Sequence record: PV173775
Strand: one strand, 5' to 3'
DNA length: 64,000 nt
Source of the DNA: Escherichia phage GEP001
Position numbers and translations under genes: made by a program. Shown in pieces: positions 4,236 through 64,000 of the stretch (its first letter is position 1; each line of letters begins with the position of its first letter). The notes under the pieces were generated by a model. That model was not told the origin of the DNA. It made no database searches and saw only the letters and a list, made by a program, of their open reading frames with translations.

Positions 4236-4254
4236 CCAAAGATTGCACAAAGTT

Positions 4255-4284
4255 GTTTACAGTATGGTTCCTTTGTGATAGTAT
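4255..4284 (+). promoter_or_regulatory. early-type promoter (CACAAAGTTGTTTACA ... TAGTAT)
   Basis: GTTTAC 4255-4260, TAGTAT 4279-4284; follows terminator 4205-4235. Confidence 0.6.
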
Positions 4285-4311: not shown

Positions 4312-4644
4312 ATGAAAACGATTAATCTAAACGCTGCGGTTAAAACTAAATGCTTCAATGGTAAATATGATGAAACTATGTGGTTCTTAATGGCAGTTGA
4401 AGGTGATATTATTGAAGTAGAAACAACAGAAGGTATGGGAACAGATTTCACCTTTACAATTCAAGTTCATAATTTCTTTACTGGTTGGATTTATGAATTG
4501 AATACAGTAATCGTTGGAAAAATTGAACAAAATGAATCAGGTGAATGGTATTATGTTACAGCTCGCCAACGTGCCGAACGCTTAATTGAGAAGATGAAAA
4601 AAGTTGGTAAACTTGACATGCAACATTGGAAAGTAGTAAAATAA
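4312..4644 (+). CDS. hypothetical protein, 110 aa (T4 30.8 position)
   Basis: AGGAG ribosome-binding site upstream of ATG 4312; early promoter 4255-4284. Confidence 0.55.
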   Translation: MKTINLNAAVKTKCFNGKYDETMWFLMAVEGDIIEVETTEGMGTDFTFTIQVHNFFTGWIYELNTVIVGKIEQNESGEWYYVTARQRAERLIEKMKKVGKLDMQHWKVVK

Positions 4645-4646
4645 TT

Positions 4647-4675
4647 GTTTACTTTGGTACAGGATATGATATTAT
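4647..4675 (+). promoter_or_regulatory. early-type promoter
   Basis: GTTTAC 4647-4652, TATTAT 4670-4675. Confidence 0.6.
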
Positions 4676-4712
4676 ATACCTGTACCGCAATTAAACATCT
4701 CGGAGAATAAAA

Positions 4713-5078
4713 ATGAACTACATCAATTTTGAACGTAAATATGTTTCTAATGGTATTGCAGGTTCTATTGATACTATCTGCCTTTGGAAACATCAAAATG
4801 GATCAGTATGCGAAATTGAACAGTATATGACTCCTAACTACGTTTATATGCGATTTGAAAATGGCATCACGGTTTCAATCACGAAAGAAGGTTCTTCTTT
4901 TAAAATCGCATTAGATGATGATTTCCGTCAACGCGATTTAGGGACTCATCCTTGCTGGAATGGTGTTAATCGTAAGCTTCTGGTTAAAACTTGGATTCGT
5001 CATATTCTGAGCAACAGAGCTAAACCTGAGCATCTTGAAGCAATCTTTGATGTAGTTCTTAACGAATTTGATATTTAA
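4713..5078 (+). CDS. hypothetical protein, 121 aa (T4 30.7 position)
   Basis: GGAGAA ribosome-binding site; early promoter 4647-4675; GGGGC-TTCG-GCCCC hairpin after stop. Confidence 0.55.
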   Translation: MNYINFERKYVSNGIAGSIDTICLWKHQNGSVCEIEQYMTPNYVYMRFENGITVSITKEGSSFKIALDDDFRQRDLGTHPCWNGVNRKLLVKTWIRHILSNRAKPEHLEAIFDVVLNEFDI

Positions 5079-7363: not shown

Positions 7364-8820
7364 TTCTTAAAATTCTGAATGAAATAGCATCTATTGGATC
7401 AACTAAGCAGAAGCAAGCAATTCTTGAAAAGAATAAAGATAATGAATTGCTTAAACGAGTATATCGTCTGACTTATTCTCGTGGGTTACAGTATTATATC
7501 AAGAAATGGCCTAAACCTGGTATTGCTACCCAGAGTTTTGGAATGCTGACTATTACCGATATGCTTGACTTCATTGAATTCACGTTAGCTACTCGGAAAT
7601 TGACTGGAAATGCAGCAATTGAGGAATTAACTGGATATATCACTGACGGTAAAAAGGATGATGTTGAAGTTTTACGTCGAGTTATGATGCGAGACCTTGA
7701 ATGCGGTGCTTCAGTATCTATTGCAAACAAAGTTTGGCCAGGTTTAATTCCTGAACAACCTCAAATGCTGGCAAGTTCTTATGATGAAAAAGGCATTAGT
7801 AAGAATATCAAGTTTCCAGCTTTTGCGCAGTTAAAAGCAGATGGAGCTCGGTGTTTTGCTGAAGTTAGAGGTGATGAATTAGATGATGTTCGTCTTTTAT
7901 CACGAGCTGGCAATGAATATCTAGGATTAGATCTTCTTAAGGAAGAGTTAATCAAAATGACTGCTGAAGCCCGCCAGATTCATCCAGAAGGTGTGTTAAT
8001 TGATGGCGAATTGGTATACCATGAGCAAGTTGAAAAGGAACCAGAAGGCCTAGATTTTCTTTTTGATGCTCCTGAAATCAGTAAAGCTAAAGAGTTTGCC
8101 GAAGTAGCTGAATCTCGTACTGCTTCTAATGGAATCGCCAATAAATCTTTAAAGGGAACTATTTCAGAAAAAGAAGCCAAATGCATGAAGTTTCAGGTCT
8201 GGGATTATGTTCCGTTGGTAGAAATATACGGTCTTCCGGCGTTTCGTTTAAAATATGATGTACGTTTTTCTAAACTAGAACAAATGACATCAGGATATGA
8301 TAAAGTAATTTTAATTGAAAACCAGCTAGTAAATAACCTAGATGAAGCTAAGGTAATTTATAAAAAGTATATTGACCAAGGTCTTGAAGGTATTATTCTC
8401 AAAAATACCGATGGATTGTGGGAAAATGCTCGTTCAAAAAATCTCTATAAATTTAAAGAAGTAATTGATGTTGATTTAAAAATTGTAGGAATTTATCCTC
8501 ACCGTAAAGACCCTACTAAAGCAGGTGGATTTATTCTTGAATCAGAGTGTGGAAAAATTAAAGTAAATGCAGGTTCAGGCTTAAAAGATAAAGCTGGTGT
8601 AAAATCACATGAACTTGACCGTACTCGCATTATGGAAAACCAAAATTATTATATTGGAAAAATTCTAGAGTGCGAATGCAACGGTTGGTTAAAATCTGAT
8701 GGCCGCACTGATTACGTTAAATTATTTCTTCCGATTGCGATTCGTTTACGTGAAGATAAAACTAAAGCTAATACATTCGAGGATGTATTTGGTGATTTTC
8801 ATGAGGTAACTGGTCTATGA
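7360..8820 (+). CDS. 30: ATP-dependent DNA ligase
   Basis: 486 aa; adenylation-site lysine in FAQLKADGARCF; MILKILNEIASIGSTKQKQAILEK... recognised from memory of T4 ligase. Confidence 0.95.
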   Translation: MILKILNEIASIGSTKQKQAILEKNKDNELLKRVYRLTYSRGLQYYIKKWPKPGIATQSFGMLTITDMLDFIEFTLATRKLTGNAAIEELTGYITDGKKDDVEVLRRVMMRDLECGASVSIANKVWPGLIPEQPQMLASSYDEKGISKNIKFPAFAQLKADGARCFAEVRGDELDDVRLLSRAGNEYLGLDLLKEELIKMTAEARQIHPEGVLIDGELVYHEQVEKEPEGLDFLFDAPEISKAKEFAEVAESRTASNGIANKSLKGTISEKEAKCMKFQVWDYVPLVEIYGLPAFRLKYDVRFSKLEQMTSGYDKVILIENQLVNNLDEAKVIYKKYIDQGLEGIILKNTDGLWENARSKNLYKFKEVIDVDLKIVGIYPHRKDPTKAGGFILESECGKIKVNAGSGLKDKAGVKSHELDRTRIMENQNYYIGKILECECNGWLKSDGRTDYVKLFLPIAIRLREDKTKANTFEDVFGDFHEVTGL

Positions 8821-58771: not shown

Positions 58772-59302
58772 ATGTCGCAAGCACTACAACAAATTTTTAA
58801 CCAAGCAAATACAACTAACTTTGTAGTATCAATACCGCATAGTAATACTACATCTGCTTTTACTTTAAATGCTCAGTCAGTTCCTATTCCAGGAATTAGA
58901 ATACCTGTTACTGATACCGTGACTGGGCCGTTTGGACTAGGCAGAGCGCAACGTCCAGGAGTTACATTTGAGTACGACCCACTCATTGTGAGATTTATAG
59001 TTGATGAAGAGCTTAAGTCGTGGATAGGAATGTATGAATGGATGCTAGGAACTAGTAACTATCTTACGGGTGAAAATACTGCCCAAAAAACAGGTCCTGA
59101 ATACATTACGCTTTACATTTTAGATAATAGTAAAACTGAAATCGTGATGTCAATAAATTTTTATAAGCCTTGGGTTTCTGACCTGTCTGAAGTAGAATTT
59201 AGCTACACGGAAGATTCAGACCCAGCTTTAGTATGTACAGCAACGATTCCTTATACGTATTTTCAAGTAGAAAAAGATGGTAAAATTATAGCAGAAGTTT
59301 AA
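58772..59302 (+). CDS. 3: tail completion and sheath stabiliser
   Basis: ORF-track entry 58691-59302 trimmed to ATG 58772 after GAGGA ribosome-binding site (MSQALQQIFNQANTTNF...), 176 aa as T4 gp3. Confidence 0.85.
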   Translation: MSQALQQIFNQANTTNFVVSIPHSNTTSAFTLNAQSVPIPGIRIPVTDTVTGPFGLGRAQRPGVTFEYDPLIVRFIVDEELKSWIGMYEWMLGTSNYLTGENTAQKTGPEYITLYILDNSKTEIVMSINFYKPWVSDLSEVEFSYTEDSDPALVCTATIPYTYFQVEKDGKIIAEV

Positions 59303-59351
59303 TGCTTCAGTTTCATGTGTTATAATCTTAACTAAATTTGAGGAGAAACAT

Positions 59352-60076
59352 ATGAAACTAATCTTTTTAAGTGGTGTAAAGCGTAGTGGAAAAGATACTA
59401 CCGCAGATTTTATCATGAATAATTATTCTGCAGTTAAATATCAACTTGCTGGTCCTATTAAGGATGCATTGGCTTATGCATGGGGCGTATTTGCAGCAAA
59501 CACTGACTATCCTTGCTTAACTCGTAAAGAGTTTGAAGGAATTGACTATGATCGTGAGACTAATTTAAATCTGACTAAATTAGAAGTAATTACGATTATG
59601 GAACAAGCATTTTGCTATCTTAATAGTAAAAGCCCAATTAAAGGTGTGTTTGTTTTTGATGACGAAGGAAAGGAATCAGTTACTTTCGTAGCATTTAACA
59701 AGATTGCTGACGTTATAAATAATATTGAAGATCAATGGTCAGTCCGTCGTCTGATGCAAGCCCTAGGTACGGATTTGATTGTTAATAACTTCGACCGCAT
59801 GTATTGGGTAAAATTATTTGCTTTAGATTATCTTGATAAATTTAACTCAGGTTATGATTATTATATCGTTCCTGATACTCGTCAAGATCATGAAATGGAT
59901 GCGGCTAGGGCGATGGGTGCTACAGTAATTCATGTAGTTCGTCCTGGTCAAAAATCCAATGATACTCATATTACAGAAGCTGGATTGCCAATTCGTGATG
60001 GTGATTTAGTAATTACAAACGATGGTTCTCTTGAAGAACTTTTTTCTAAAATTAAAAATACACTAAAGGTACTATA

Positions 60077-60077
<1 letters not shown>
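59352..60077 (+). CDS. 1: deoxynucleoside monophosphate kinase
   Basis: 241 aa; P-loop GVKRSGKDT in translation. Confidence 0.93.
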
Positions 60078-60774
<697 letters not shown>

Positions 60775-60786
60775 TTTCACAAAGTT

Positions 60787-60816
60787 GTTTACACGCTGAT
60801 GAGGTAGTGATACTAT
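60787..60816 (+). promoter_or_regulatory. early-type promoter (CACAAAGTTGTTTACA ... TACTAT) for ipI
   Basis: GTTTAC 60787-60792, TACTAT 60811-60816. Confidence 0.65.
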
Positions 60817-60846
60817 TATCTCATCAAAATTAATTAGGAAAATAAA

Positions 60847-61134
60847 ATGAAAACATTTAAAGAATTTACTTCTACAACTACCCCGGTTTCTACCATTACC
60901 GAAGCTACTCTTACTTCTGAAGTTATTAAAGCAAATAAAGGACGAGAAGGTAAACCAATGATTAGTCTGGTTGATGGCGAAGAAATCAAAGGTACTGTTT
61001 ACCTAGGCGATGGGTGGTCTGCTAAAAAGGATGGTGCTACAATCGTTATCTCTCCTGCTGAAGAAACTGCGTTGTTTAAAGCTAAACATATTTCTGCGGC
61101 ACATCTCAAGATTATTGCTAAAAATCTTTTGTAA
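60847..61134 (+). CDS. ipI: internal protein I (packaged, injected; anti-restriction in T4)
   Basis: 95 aa; MKTFKEFTSTTTPVSTITEATL... recognised from memory; early promoter 60787-60816. Confidence 0.88.
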   Translation: MKTFKEFTSTTTPVSTITEATLTSEVIKANKGREGKPMISLVDGEEIKGTVYLGDGWSAKKDGATIVISPAEETALFKAKHISAAHLKIIAKNLL

Positions 61135-61152
61135 TAAATATTTCACAAAGTT

Positions 61153-61182
61153 GTTTACATAGGGTTTTAGTTGTGATACTAT
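61153..61182 (+). promoter_or_regulatory. early-type promoter (CACAAAGTTGTTTACA ... TACTAT)
   Basis: GTTTAC 61153-61158, TACTAT 61177-61182; upstream half identical to the ipI promoter. Confidence 0.65.
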
Positions 61183-61210
61183 TACCCTATCAACTACTGA
61201 GGAGAATAAA

Positions 61211-61396
61211 ATGAAACGTTGTGAATTAATTCGAAATGTTGCTATTGCAATTTCTGCTTCTGCTTTTAGTTTTTCAATGTTTGTTGGATTTATATGCGGA
61301 TTATTGACTACAGCAGAAAACGTTTTTTCACTTGTAGTAGCATTTTTAATTGGTTTAATCGCTATTGTTATGGATAAAATTTCTAAAGGTGAATAG
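61211..61396 (+). CDS. small hydrophobic (probable membrane) protein, 61 aa
   Basis: two hydrophobic stretches (IAISASAFSFSMFVGFICGLL and FSLVVAFLIGLIAIV); early promoter 61153-61182; GGAGAA ribosome-binding site. Confidence 0.6.
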   Translation: MKRCELIRNVAIAISASAFSFSMFVGFICGLLTTAENVFSLVVAFLIGLIAIVMDKISKGE

Positions 61397-61397
61397 A

Positions 61398-61781
61398 ATG
61401 TATAAAGTGTACGCGGATTATCAGGCTAATCCATCTAAAAAGCCAAGCTGTCAAATAGGATGGGCTCATGATACTTTGCTTGAAGCAGTAGATGCTGCTC
61501 AAAAATTGGGATATAAATATGTAGAGATTGTTCAACTTCCATCAGGAACAGTTATTACTCTCGAAGAGTTTAATAATATTAAATCAAACTTTTTACTTTT
61601 TGCAGGTGATAATTATTATCCTCGTGGTGGATATGCTGATTTAATCGCGAAAGCCGCTACCGAAGATGAACTTCGTGATATTATTAAAGAAAATGAAAAT
61701 AAACCGATGTATGGTTCTAATCGCTTTGATTGGTGGCAAATCGTAAATGCCCATACTCATACTATTGTTGATGAAGGCTGA
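61398..61781 (+). CDS. hypothetical protein, 127 aa
   Basis: ORF-track start 61365 is TTG inside upstream gene; ATG 61398 follows AAGGTG ribosome-binding site. Confidence 0.55.
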   Translation: MYKVYADYQANPSKKPSCQIGWAHDTLLEAVDAAQKLGYKYVEIVQLPSGTVITLEEFNNIKSNFLLFAGDNYYPRGGYADLIAKAATEDELRDIIKENENKPMYGSNRFDWWQIVNAHTHTIVDEG

Positions 61782-61783
61782 TA

Positions 61784-62089
61784 ATGATTCTTTATGCGAA
61801 AGTATCGTCCATTGAAAATGGATATAAATATGATCAAGAAGCAGCTAAAGCCTTGATTGATGATTATGGCATTTTAACGTGTTTTGAAGTTGAAAAGGTT
61901 TACATTGACCGTTCATCTTCTCAAGTTAAATTAGTGAAGGAAGACCGTAAATTTAATACAGTAAATTTTGATTTCTTTATTGAAACAGAAAAAGGTCCTC
62001 TTGAATATGATATTTTCAAGAATCCTTTGGGTCTTGAATGTATTAAATATACTTACATTAATATGGTGAACAAATGTATATTCGTTTAG
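61784..62089 (+). CDS. hypothetical protein, 101 aa
   Basis: ATG 2 nt after upstream stop. Confidence 0.55.
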   Translation: MILYAKVSSIENGYKYDQEAAKALIDDYGILTCFEVEKVYIDRSSSQVKLVKEDRKFNTVNFDFFIETEKGPLEYDIFKNPLGLECIKYTYINMVNKCIFV

Positions 62090-62589
62090 GCAGCACAATT
62101 CCTAAGGGTTACGTAATTGATGTCACTACCTGGGAAAATGATGGTGACAACTATAAAACAAAAACTCTGTTTGGCGTAGAAGAGCATGAGCTCCAACAAT
62201 TTAAATATCTCTTGAAGAAGTTTAAGAGTCGTCATTCTAGTACCAAAGTTGAACGTTATTGTGGTAATGGTTTGTTCAGCGAGCAAGAGCTTTTTATATA
62301 TGAATATTTGGTTGAAGGACTGTTCTCAGACCAACTTTATCCAGAATTCATTAAAAAGGTCTTTGACATAGAAGTTGACCTTGGTAATAAATCCGAAGAA
62401 GATGAAGAACGTGTATTTGACTTATTCTTTGTGAATGGTAATAAGATATCTGAAGGCCTCATTGATATTCTTGGTCATGCTTCTGAATACTATGAATATG
62501 ATTTCTTGCGTGTAGTTGAACATGTAGAATTTGCTTATATCGAAGAAGAAATTGTTTTGCCGACTGTTAAAATGGTTGATTTGCTTTAA
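62074..62589 (+). CDS. hypothetical protein, 171 aa
   Basis: overlaps upstream ORF by 16 nt; stop overlaps MotA-box promoter of the tRNA cluster. Confidence 0.55.
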   Translation: MYIRLGSTIPKGYVIDVTTWENDGDNYKTKTLFGVEEHELQQFKYLLKKFKSRHSSTKVERYCGNGLFSEQELFIYEYLVEGLFSDQLYPEFIKKVFDIEVDLGNKSEEDEERVFDLFFVNGNKISEGLIDILGHASEYYEYDFLRVVEHVEFAYIEEEIVLPTVKMVDLL

Positions 62590-62606
62590 GAATTATTTGT
62601 TATTAT
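62580..62606 (+). promoter_or_regulatory. middle promoter (MotA box TTTGCTTTA + -10 TATTAT) ahead of the tRNA cluster
   Basis: MotA box 62580-62588, 12-nt spacer, TATTAT 62601-62606; duplicate of the gene 31 promoter. Confidence 0.6.
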
Positions 62607-62675
62607 TAACTCATATCGCACTGATTAATACCCTCTATCATCAAGGGTTCTTATTTGAGAGCCTTTGTTAATAAT

Positions 62676-62748
62676 TGGGAATTAGCCAAGTTGGTAAGGC
62701 ACTGGATTTTGATTCCAGGATGCAAAGGTTCGAGTCCTTTATTCCCAG
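62676..62748 (+). tRNA. tRNA-Gln (anticodon UUG)
   Basis: Hand-folded: acceptor TGGGAAT/ATTCCCA, anticodon stem CTGGA/TCCAG, loop TTTTGAT; CCA not encoded. Confidence 0.85.
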
Positions 62749-62749
62749 C

Positions 62750-62836
62750 GCGAGAATGGTCAAATTGGTAAAGGCACAGCACTTAAAATGCTGCGGAATG
62801 ATTTCCTTGTGGGTTCGAGTCCCACTTCTCGCACCA
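62750..62836 (+). tRNA. tRNA-Leu (anticodon UAA), long variable arm
   Basis: acceptor GCGAGAA/TTCTCGC, anticodon stem CAGCA/TGCTG, loop CTTAAAA; encoded CCA. Confidence 0.85.
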
Positions 62837-62841
62837 AATTT

Positions 62842-62915
<74 letters not shown>

Positions 62916-62925
62916 ATTTAATTTA

Positions 62926-62999
62926 CTCCGTGTAGCTCAGTTTGGTAGAGCGTCTGCTTTGGGAGCAGAATGTCGTAGGTTCAAATCCTGCTACGGAGA
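62926..62999 (+). tRNA. tRNA-Pro (anticodon UGG)
   Basis: acceptor CTCCGTG/TACGGAG (one G-U), anticodon stem TCTGC/GCAGA, loop TTTGGGA; CCA not encoded. Confidence 0.8.
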
Positions 63000-63001
63000 C
63001 T

Positions 63002-63091
63002 GGAGGCGTGGCAGAGTGGTTTAATGCACCGGTCTTGAAAACCGGCAGTCGCTCCGGCGACTCATAGGTTCAAATCCTATCGCCTCCGCCA
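63002..63091 (+). tRNA. tRNA-Ser (anticodon UGA), long variable arm
   Basis: acceptor GGAGGCG/CGCCTCC, anticodon stem CCGGT/ACCGG, loop CTTGAAA; encoded CCA. Confidence 0.85.
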
Positions 63092-63097
63092 GTTTTT

Positions 63098-63173
63098 GCT
63101 GATTTAGCTCAGTAGGTAGAGCACCTCACTTGTAATGAGGACGTCGGCGGTTCGATTCCGTCAATCAGCACCA
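63098..63173 (+). tRNA. tRNA-Thr (anticodon UGU)
   Basis: acceptor GCTGATT/AATCAGC, anticodon stem CCTCA/TGAGG, loop CTTGTAA; encoded CCA. Confidence 0.85.
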
Positions 63174-63174
63174 A

Positions 63175-63249
63175 GGCCCTGTAGCTGGAAGGTTCAAGCA
63201 AGCGACTCATAATCGCCAGATGGTGGTTCAATTCCACCCAGGGCCACCA
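63175..63249 (+). tRNA. tRNA with CAU anticodon (Met by anticodon; may be lysidine-type Ile reading AUA)
   Basis: acceptor GGCCCTG/CAGGGCC, T-arm GGTGG-TTCAATT-CCACC, anticodon loop CTCATAA; top anticodon-stem pair is A/C. Confidence 0.75.
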
Positions 63250-63258
63250 AATTAATTT

Positions 63259-63345
63259 GGGGAGTTATCCCGTAGAGGTAGCGGTGTGGACTGTAAATTC
63301 ATTGTCATTGCGACTCGGGTGGTTCGACTCCATCACTCCCCACCA
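63259..63345 (+). tRNA. tRNA-like gene, probably tRNA-Tyr (anticodon GUA), long variable arm, non-canonical D-arm
   Basis: 7-bp acceptor GGGGAGT/ACTCCCC + A + CCA, T-arm GGTGG-TTCGACT-CCATC, loop CTGTAAA flanked by GTGGA/TTCAT (two G-U pairs); D-arm does not fold canonically by hand. Confidence 0.55.
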
Positions 63346-63349
63346 ATTT

Positions 63350-63424
63350 GGATGTGTAGCTCAATGGCAGAGCGATCGCCTGTTAAGCGATTGGTTATAG
63401 GTTCGAATCCTATCACGTCCGCCA
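63350..63424 (+). tRNA. tRNA-Asn (anticodon GUU)
   Basis: clean cloverleaf: acceptor GGATGTG/CACGTCC, D-stem GCTC/GAGC, anticodon stem ATCGC/GCGAT, loop CTGTTAA, T-arm ATAGG-TTCGAAT-CCTAT; encoded CCA. Confidence 0.85.
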
Positions 63425-63428
63425 AATC

Positions 63429-63504
63429 CGAGGCATAGCTCAGAAGGAAGAGCAAGGACCTTCTAAGTCCTAGGTCGTAGGTTCGATCCCTACTGCCTCG
63501 ACCA
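63429..63504 (+). tRNA. tRNA-Arg (anticodon UCU)
   Basis: acceptor CGAGGCA/TGCCTCG, D-stem GCTC/GAGC, anticodon stem AGGAC/GTCCT, loop CTTCTAA; encoded CCA. Confidence 0.85.
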
Positions 63505-63520: not shown

Positions 63521-63871
63521 ATGAAAGGTAATGTTTATTTAGTAGTTCATGATTTAACATTCTATTTTAATCACAATGACACTGTTATTTCTGAACGTGT
63601 AATTAATTTACTTTATCAGCACGCAGATTATGTTTATGTCGAAAACGAATATGGTCATTGGCAATTTCTCAAAAATCGTTCATTTGGTTTAGATGGTTAC
63701 GAATACTTTGAACGTAAAGACCTTTTAGATAAAATTCCGTTATCTACACAATATCAAAATCATAAGTCTTTACATAAATGCCGTCAAATTCGAAATGCTG
63801 AATCTGCGTATGAAGCAATTGATTTATGGCGTAAACGTCGTGAACAGATTGATGCATTAAAAGAATATTAA
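63521..63871 (+). CDS. hypothetical protein, 116 aa
   Basis: GAGGAAAA ribosome-binding site upstream of ATG 63521, immediately after tRNA-Arg. Confidence 0.55.
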   Translation: MKGNVYLVVHDLTFYFNHNDTVISERVINLLYQHADYVYVENEYGHWQFLKNRSFGLDGYEYFERKDLLDKIPLSTQYQNHKSLHKCRQIRNAESAYEAIDLWRKRREQIDALKEY

Positions 63872-64000
63872 GAAGCCGGGTCGCTACCGGTAAGTCGTCG
63901 GACTGATGTTCCCTGGAGTATAGTTTCTCCCACAGTTTTACTGTGTTCTGATTCTTTACTATCACAGCAGAAACGGCGCACAGAATTATCGATTCGAGGA

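Follow-up and report, generated by a model that had tools for sequence, protein, structure and literature searches.

A Probable Early Accessory Cassette of Four T-even Genes Between ipI and the tRNA Genes of Escherichia Phage GEP001

Genes Located Between ipI and the tRNA Cluster

We analyzed the interval between ipI, the gene for internal protein I, and the tRNA gene cluster of Escherichia phage GEP001 in a stretch of 64,000 nucleotides (nt) of its DNA (sequence record PV173775; the whole stretch is referred to as the window). Four open reading frames (ORFs) lie there on the plus strand: ORF1 (61211–61396; 61 amino acids, aa), a homologue of trna.4 (phrog_1692); ORF2 (61398–61781; 127 aa, isoelectric point (pI) 4.9), a homologue of trna.3 (phrog_1411); ORF3 (61784–62089; 101 aa, pI 4.95), a homologue of trna.2 (phrog_2023); and ORF4 (62074–62589; 171 aa, pI 4.6), a member of the RB69ORF151c family (phrog_2290). 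Judged by sequence, they are T-even genes already catalogued under these names, not new ones. The PHROG matches of all four were full-length, and every one of these families is of unknown function. In the annotation of RB69, tRNA.4, tRNA.3, tRNA.2, and RB69ORF151c follow each other in the same order. In T4, trna.4, trna.3, and trna.2 (UniProt P13322, P13323, and P13324) are located between ipI and tRNA-Gln without the fourth gene, and they share position, order, strand, and promoter with ORF1–ORF3.

A first-pass annotation, made from the sequence alone, had reported four uncharacterized ORFs of 61, 127, 101, and 171 aa at this place. All of them were present, each with a Shine–Dalgarno (SD)-like sequence 6–9 nt before its start. 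Pairwise Nei–Gojobori comparisons with T4, RB69, EPIMRB01, and a Dhakavirus gave ratios of nonsynonymous to synonymous divergence (dN/dS) of 0–0.44 for all four; thus, they are genuine coding genes under purifying selection. The start/stop overlaps by which the annotation had linked them were limited to ORF3/ORF4 (16 nt), while a gap of 1 nt lies between ORF1 and ORF2 and one of 2 nt between ORF2 and ORF3. The word “uncharacterized” was right as regards function, but the genes already had names, a link that had been missed. A mechanical ORF list gave ORF2 as 138 aa from TTG at 61365; this start was rejected because every homologue begins with MYKVY, which corresponds to ATG at 61398 and to a product of 127 aa.

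Scans against Pfam-A, NCBIfam, and PADLOC gave nothing significant for the four ORFs (the Pfam-A release used predates PF26894 and PF27001), and single-sequence and profile searches of the Protein Data Bank (PDB) with ORF2, ORF3, and ORF4 gave nothing below E 0.1. The profile and structure searches that had been proposed for these three products therefore placed them in full-length PHROG families but yielded no PDB, Pfam-A, or defense-library match. The three soluble products (ORF2–ORF4) are acidic, with pI values of 4.6–4.95; their families were mutually unrelated in profile–profile comparison, and no paralogues of them were found in the window.

A time-resolved study of the T4 transcriptome and proteome classed trna.2 and trna.3 as early from both RNA and protein, and trna.4 as early from RNA, its protein not being detected (PMC9697503, supplement). 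All three T4 genes were classed as “Not Fit” in a genome-wide CRISPRi-ART knockdown, i.e., there was no fitness cost in laboratory E. coli (PMC11879866, supplement). We failed to find in the literature a functional paper on trna.2, trna.3, trna.4, or RB69ORF151c, a DRT1 pull-down apart, and none of the searched peptide strings was present in the supplements of the accessory-gene screen of Silas et al.

Proteins Encoded in the Interval

Trna.4 (ORF1) matched phrog_1692 over residues 1–61 of 61 (E 6e-35) and was 100% identical to the T4 protein despite a synonymous divergence (dS) of 0.16. Kyte–Doolittle hydropathy in windows of 19 residues peaked at 2.03 (residues 10–28) and 2.35 (residues 35–55), both above the usual threshold of 1.6; this hydropathy-based call agrees with the earlier description of a small membrane protein with two hydrophobic segments. 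In Tequatrovirus, Mosigvirus, Dhakavirus, Karamvirus, and Moonvirus, the tails MKRxE(L/I)IxN and MDKI are invariant, while the helices vary. From the basic residues at both ends, we infer an N-in, C-in hairpin; Trna.4 is thus a predicted two-helix inner-membrane protein with both conserved tails, two short motifs, in the cytoplasm.

Trna.3 (ORF2) matched phrog_1411 over residues 1–127 (E 3e-55), and precomputed Pfam assignments placed PF26894 on all of its full-length homologues. The whole protein has approximately 58–61% aa identity to T4 Trna.3. Its predicted structure consists of two alpha/beta domains, with a predicted local distance difference test score (pLDDT) of 87 and a predicted template modeling score (pTM) of 0.73. 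The domains differ in their match to T4: the C-terminal one (61586–61781, plus strand), with the motif FxG..YYPxGG..D...WW, is conserved with respect to T4 (92.5% DNA identity from 61586), whereas the N-terminal one (61398–61585, plus strand) is a different allele with no DNA match in T4. The dS of trna.3 was 0.82 versus 0.14–0.16 in neighboring genes. Raised dS together with a domain-sized stretch of non-matching DNA indicates allelic replacement of the N-terminal domain by recombination from a distant lineage, as far as sequence comparison can tell, and not fast local evolution.

Searching 1.84 billion cluster representatives with a Trna.3 profile gave 546 matches at E ≤0.001. Nearly all of them were proteins of 60–100 aa consisting of the C-terminal domain alone, with the consensus YLLFAGxxYYPxGGxxD...DWWHIVD; such stand-alone proteins are found in PHROGs 17649, 4811, and 5638, all of unknown function. 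One of the 60 members scanned matched helix-turn-helix models and nothing else was informative; a cluster look-up of ten stand-alone proteins returned no informative name. By these sequence matches, the C-terminal part of Trna.3 is a widespread stand-alone phage domain of approximately 62 aa, which is a new lead.

Trna.2 (ORF3) matched phrog_2023 (E 1e-48) with its synteny kept, and its homologues carry the precomputed Pfam assignment PF27001. It has 93–97% aa identity to T4 Trna.2, with 47 invariant alignment columns. The protein is 101 aa long here, with its end overlapping the additional gene ORF4, which accounts for the difference from the 95 aa of T4 Trna.2. A published pull-down with the defense reverse transcriptase DRT1 enriched two T4 proteins, Trna.2 and Inh, relative to the inactive DRT1 mutant; its authors took the finding no further (PMC13275509).

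ORF4 matched phrog_2290 (E 2e-66), including the WENDGDxY, GN, and RV positions of the RB69ORF151c family, and had 87% identity to RB69ORF151c (AAP76053) and 98.8% to the RB27 protein. The predicted fold (pLDDT 89, pTM 0.82) is a three-stranded sheet built from an N-terminal hairpin plus a C-terminal strand and carrying a helical insert. A Foldseek search of BFVD with this fold returned uncharacterized phage proteins only. The invariant acidic and polar motif W20-E-N-D-G-D-x-Y27, G64-N65, Y140-D-x-D-F-x-R146-V provides a second new lead. In family members at 27–34% identity, G12, E21, N22, D23, D25, Y27, F50, G64, N65, R146, and V147 were invariant, and W20, G24, S52, Y140, D141, F144, and E149 nearly so. 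Since the strand topology should bring the hairpin tip (21–27) near the start of the last strand (146–147), we infer that the conserved residues form a single acidic/polar site, which would be more like a ligand-binding, metal-binding, or catalytic site than an evolving protein-binding surface.

Variation Among Relatives

The first-pass annotation had expected this interval to vary between T4-like phages. Comparison with T4 DNA gave 97.5% identity from gene 1 through trna.4 (59300–61400), no blastn match for the Trna.3 N-terminal domain (61401–61585), and 92.5% identity for the C-terminal domain together with trna.2 (61586–62049). T4 has no counterpart of ORF4 (62050–62569, an indel of approximately 520 nt), and identity resumes at 94.9% from 62570 with the middle promoter and the first tRNAs.

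The families were counted by tblastn over 50,697 phage records. Trna.4 matched 790 records, 505 of them at ≥95% identity, and Trna.2 matched 803, of which 652 were at ≥80%. The 763 matches of Trna.3 were bimodal, 273 at ≥80% and 424 at <60%. ORF4 matched 564 records (253 at ≥80% and 311 at <60%), the matches below 60% being to T4-like phages of Klebsiella, Enterobacter, Citrobacter, and Aeromonas. The gp1 control matched 1635 records, 503 of them at ≥90%. A query built on the T4 junction was unfit for counting genomes that lack ORF4: pieces at most approximately 570 nt apart are joined, and ORF4 carriers therefore score as covered.

The expected variability was thus found in the alleles of Trna.3 and in the presence or absence of ORF4, of which a close copy occurs in 253 records versus 652 with a close Trna.2, and none in T4; it did not extend to the almost invariant Trna.4 or to the well-conserved Trna.2. 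At the sequence level, the mosaicism of the interval concerns one protein domain and one whole gene, with hardly any change in its membrane protein. The Dhakavirus examined lacked trna.2 and had the ORF4 homologue directly after trna.3. The ipI slot is also exchangeable: Bas37 has two other genes there, including an inhibitor of McrBC (HIDEN-SEQ preprint), and RB69 has an extra ORF in this slot.

Early-Promoter Cassettes

The first-pass annotation had the four ORFs driven by a near-duplicate of the ipI promoter, and such a copy does precede them. The 16-mer CACAAAGTTGTTTACA occurs in exact copies at 60778–60793 and 61144–61159, with a third at 4246; both local copies lie inside a 54-nt direct repeat (60774–60827 and 61140–61193) with 78% identity, and a second direct repeat of 24 nt spans the SD sequence and the ATG. 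The ipI cassette (60774–60827, plus strand) contains a promoter at 60788–60816, with the −35 element TTTACA at 60788–60793 and the extended −10 element TGATACTAT ending at 60816. In the second cassette (61140–61193, plus strand), the promoter at 61154–61182 has TTTACA at 61154–61159 and TACTAT, preceded by TG, at 61177–61182, and the SD sequence GAGGAG follows.

Both copies read TTTACA-17 nt-TACTAT with a TG-extended −10 and have the layout of T4 early promoters, i.e., a GTTTAC-type −35, a 17-nt spacer, a TG-extended TAnnAT −10, and an AT-rich upstream region. T4 keeps both promoters at the same places. The pattern GTTTACW-N14-TGNTAYWAT was found at 7 sites in the window, all on the plus strand, versus 0.12 expected from shuffles, and it is therefore a real motif class and not specific to ipI. 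Another early-promoter-like site, at 4246–4284 on the plus strand and far from the ORF block, carries the third copy of CACAAAGTTGTTTACA, and a cassette upstream of T4 e.7 matches 61153–61219 at 74.6%; by sequence, both are further members of a repeated promoter-cassette family.

An inverted repeat (60797–60806/60817–60826, plus strand) encloses the −10 element of the ipI promoter, and another (61159–61165/61184–61190, plus strand) brackets that of the second promoter. If read through in RNA, 60797–60826 and 61159–61190 are each predicted to form a stable hairpin (−14.8 kcal/mol, z −2.9, and −20 kcal/mol, z −2.7, respectively). T4 has the same hairpins at both promoters (7513–7952 of the T4 locus compared, minus strand), while RB69 (2430–2866 of the RB69 locus compared) has hairpins of other arm sequence at both places, one of them with z −5.7; across the window, T4, and RB69, their lengths are 7–13 bp and z ranges from −2.7 to −5.7. 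Because the arms differ in RB69 at the same positions, the comparison suggests selection for the structure. The −10-enclosing geometry was present in three of the seven early-promoter-like sites (841, 60787, and 61153).

Middle Promoter and tRNA Genes

A site resembling a MotA-box middle promoter overlaps the stop codon of ORF4 (62580–62606, plus strand). The MotA box, (a/t)(a/t)(a/t)TGCTT(t/c)A, stands approximately 12 nt upstream of a TAnnnT −10 element. This consensus is also given in PMC4122927. The site found here consists of TTTGCTTTA (62580–62588), 12 nt, and TATTAT (62601–62606), and in sequence it has the layout of a MotA/AsiA-dependent promoter. Directly after trna.2, T4 is identical from TGCTTTA onward, including the spacer and TATTAT, which puts the ORF4 indel exactly between trna.2 and the middle promoter. 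PMC2330249, citing Broida and Abelson (1985), locates the main T4 tRNA promoter, which is a middle one, immediately before the tRNA genes.

No terminator-like site was found between ORF4 and tRNA-Gln. The leader just before tRNA-Gln contains the 11-bp hairpin AAGGGUUCUUAUUUGAGAGCCUUU (62642–62666, plus strand), which differs from its T4 counterpart by two substitutions; the folding energy of the 96-nt leader is −20.1 kcal/mol (z −2.3). Since no U-run follows it, the hairpin is probably a precursor-processing or stability element and not a terminator. Ten tRNA genes follow at 62676–63504 on the plus strand: Gln, Leu, Gly, Pro, Ser, Thr, Met (CAT), Tyr, Asn, and Arg. This set has the T2L-type arrangement, without the homing endonuclease gene segB. 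In T2L, tRNA-Asn holds the preferred cleavage site of SegB, and the tRNA-Tyr of phage T6 has been reported to counter Septu. An Rfam scan matched tRNAs only, with no RNA family inside the four ORFs.

Neighboring Genes

The stretch 60780–62680 had 97.4% identity to Escherichia phage EPIMRB01 and matched 851 phage records; by sequence, the window belongs to a T2-like Tequatrovirus. Upstream of the interval, all on the plus strand, are gene 1 for deoxynucleoside monophosphate kinase (59352–60077), 57A (60077–60319), 57B (60319–60774), and ipI (60847–61134; 95 aa). The 57B product scores as Acb1, a nuclease acting against the cyclic oligonucleotide-based antiphage signaling system (CBASS) (PF23474, E 3e-60), and is 100% identical to T4 57B. 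The gene between both promoter copies is ipI, as the first-pass annotation had it (PF11634, E 7e-54; 100% identity to T4 IPI). T4 IPI inhibits the type IV restriction enzyme GmrSD.

Downstream of tRNA-Arg, an ORF of 116 aa is encoded at 63521–63871 (plus strand; phrog_3355, unknown function). Weak homologues of it (E 0.001–0.002) were seen upstream of the ORF4 homologue in Jiaodavirus (JD18, 2396–2566 of the locus compared) and Karamvirus (RZH, 4616–4804 of the locus compared). The two families may thus be neighbors in Jiaodavirus and Karamvirus, whereas the tRNA cluster separates them in T2-like and RB69-like phages. At its end (63871–64000, plus strand), the window has 78.7% identity to T4 71035–71168, the rnaD/rnaC (species 2/species 1) region of small stable RNAs; the Rfam scan matched no model there.

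Proposed Role and Alternatives

With moderate confidence, we interpret the T-even cassette trna.4–trna.3–trna.2, together with the optional RB69ORF151c-type gene, as a non-essential early accessory block extending from ipI to the tRNAs, whose likely function is modulation of the host or of its defenses. Unmodified host sigma-70 RNA polymerase would initiate at the early promoter 61154–61182, one of a family of near-identical cassettes of promoter, stem-loop, and SD sequence. The transcript would span the four abutted, probably translationally coupled ORFs and run on into the tRNA genes, and later the MotA-dependent middle promoter in the ORF4 stop codon would take over tRNA transcription. The predicted products are a 61-aa inner-membrane hairpin and three unrelated small acidic soluble proteins. 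Their most likely role would be early modulation of host or host-defense components, needed only on particular hosts, in a pattern like that of the neighboring Acb1 and IPI rather than that of core phage replication. The repeated promoter cassettes would act as homology patches that allow genes of the interval to be swapped, gained, and lost; such patches could explain why the ipI slot is exchangeable, how Trna.3 came by another N-terminal domain, and how the ORF4 indel arose.

A counter-defense role of the four ORFs is plausible by analogy. The first-pass annotation called the interval a natural place to look for counter-defense genes, which is reasonable on context, given Acb1, IPI, the phage tRNAs, which counter tRNA-cleaving defenses (PMC13096335), and the enrichment of Trna.2 with DRT1. 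Several points weigh against the proposed account. Near-invariant Trna.4 and the low dN/dS of Trna.2 and ORF4 do not look like the signature of inhibitors in an arms race, and the strictly conserved polar residues of ORF4 suggest a ligand-binding or catalytic site over a simple protein-binding inhibitor. No ORF matched an anti-defense, defense, enzyme, or RNA-binding family in the sequence libraries or, for ORF2 and ORF4, by predicted fold, and the four ORFs had no homology or fold likeness to characterized inhibitors (Acb, Tad, Gad, Acr, Ocr, IPI, and similar). The DRT1 enrichment is a single proteomic hit not pursued by its authors. Read-through into the tRNAs and translational coupling are read from sequence only, and the literature names the middle promoter as the main one for the T4 tRNAs. 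Taken together, the conservation of Trna.4 and of the ORF4 polar residues points to conserved targets or ligands over arms-race surfaces.

A more specific and decidedly doubtful reading is that ORF4 or Trna.3 is an unrecognized new kind of anti-defense module. ORF4 may then be a small protein that binds a ligand or metal, or an enzyme, and may eliminate or sequester an immune signal or serve as a decoy for a tRNA-targeting nuclease; E21, N22, D23, D25, Y27, N65, D141, and R146, which coliphages and Aeromonas phages have in common, would probably group at one pole of the predicted sheet. Trna.3 may be a modular adaptor that joins an N-terminal recognition domain, subject to rapid exchange, to the phage domain of approximately 62 aa. 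If this were true, a single anti-defense island comprising Acb1, IPI, and the tRNA genes would be the reason why ORF4 stays where it is. The same neighborhood can be read as functional in another way, with the proteins, ORF4 above all, serving the adjacent tRNAs by processing, modifying, or protecting them, or decoying or inhibiting host nucleases that cleave tRNA; this we consider improbable. Phage tRNAs being themselves active against tRNA-cleaving defenses, the idea gains from the absence of a terminator between the ORFs and the tRNAs and from the position of the ORF4 homologues, which in six Tevenvirinae genera adjoin the tRNA cluster or lie within it; they are approximately 80–600 nt from tRNA genes in Tequatrovirus, Mosigvirus, Dhakavirus, and Moonvirus and inside the tRNA cluster in Jiaodavirus and Karamvirus, with a distance of 2.4 kb in Aeromonas phage AS4 and a changing order relative to the tRNAs. 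However, T4 makes functional tRNAs without ORF4, RB69 and the Dhakavirus keep the ORFs with only two tRNAs, the acidity of the soluble proteins disfavors RNA binding, and the modeled ORF2 and ORF4 showed no RNA-binding or nucleotidyl-transfer fold. In addition, no tRNA lies within 8 kb of a distant ORF4 homologue on a non-T4-like contig of 86 kb, or within 5 kb of a weak homologue in Aeromonas phage AS-zj. Because ORF4 homologues occur without a nearby tRNA and T4 lacks ORF4, the adjacency is most likely gene order inherited among T4-like phages.

The cassette could instead act in competition between phages or in host takeover, with Trna.4 as a membrane-anchored superinfection-exclusion or envelope/lysis-timing factor and the acidic proteins retuning host metabolism or gene expression, which we regard as unlikely. 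T4 Imm, Sp, and RI are small membrane proteins to which Trna.4 can be likened: it is a small, early membrane protein with two predicted helices; over five genera its cytoplasmic tails do not vary, unlike the helices, and a protein so nearly invariant fits a target in host or phage that is itself conserved. Library scans found no sequence similarity to proteins of the Imm/Sp/RI type, though, and knockdown gave no phenotype in single infection, an assay blind to exclusion and to host-specific effects. We give practically no credence to the view that the ORFs are chance open frames in a non-coding leader of the tRNA operon. They are indeed short, have no assigned function, and lie between a promoter and RNA genes, but purifying selection (dN/dS 0–0.44 with synonymous divergence up to saturation), full-length conservation in hundreds of phages of several genera, an SD sequence before each ORF, detection of T4 Trna.2 and Trna.3 as proteins (PMC9697503, supplement), and two confident predicted folds refute it.

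The accessory-block interpretation leaves these genes, from one side, ordinary: they are annotated as hypothetical in hundreds of T-even genomes, and T4 can do without them in laboratory E. coli. From the other side, they matter as candidates, being early, conserved yet mosaic, and flanked by the proven anti-defense genes for Acb1 and IPI and by a tRNA cluster known to counter tRNA-cleaving immunity, with Trna.2 co-purified with DRT1. The leads are narrowed to the predicted acidic pocket of ORF4, the exchanged N-terminal domain and the C-terminal mini-domain of Trna.3, and the predicted cytoplasmic tails of Trna.4.

Comparison with Known Systems

ORF4 has no meaningful difference from RB69ORF151c, which is likewise placed between trna.2 and the tRNAs and shares the invariant motif; homologues are also present in RB27, RB32, and T2-like phages, in Mosigvirus, Dhakavirus, Jiaodavirus, Karamvirus, and Moonvirus, and in Aeromonas T4-like phages. 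The four ORFs have no sequence or fold similarity to Acb1 and IPI, and no defense system is known to be countered by any of them. They are like 57B/Acb1 (anti-CBASS) and ipI (anti-GmrSD) in being early or injected, small, dispensable in the laboratory, and located in the same variable interval.

The promoter cassettes resemble, but are not identical to, the PeSL elements (promoter-early stem-loops) of the hyperplastic regions of T4-like phages (Arbiol et al. 2010; Comeau et al. 2014, PMC4122927). In the published PST/T4 figures, the stem-loop is described as just upstream of the promoter (PMC4122927), whereas here, in T4, and in RB69, the inverted repeat encloses the −10 element. The likeness is in the repeated succession of AT-rich lead, promoter, stem-loop, SD sequence, and ATG. 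The cassettes fit the PeSL consensus for the PST/T4 pair, TTTACW-N17-TAYWAT (PMC4122927), and, like PeSLs, they lie in a variable region beside indels and exchangeable genes. PeSL cassettes have been described as recombination points and proposed mediators of gene shuffling in hyperplastic regions of T4-like phages (PMC4122927). The “duplicated promoter” upstream of trna.4 would thus belong to a group of promoter/stem-loop cassettes that lie on either side of exchangeable slots, which helps to explain the variation of the interval.

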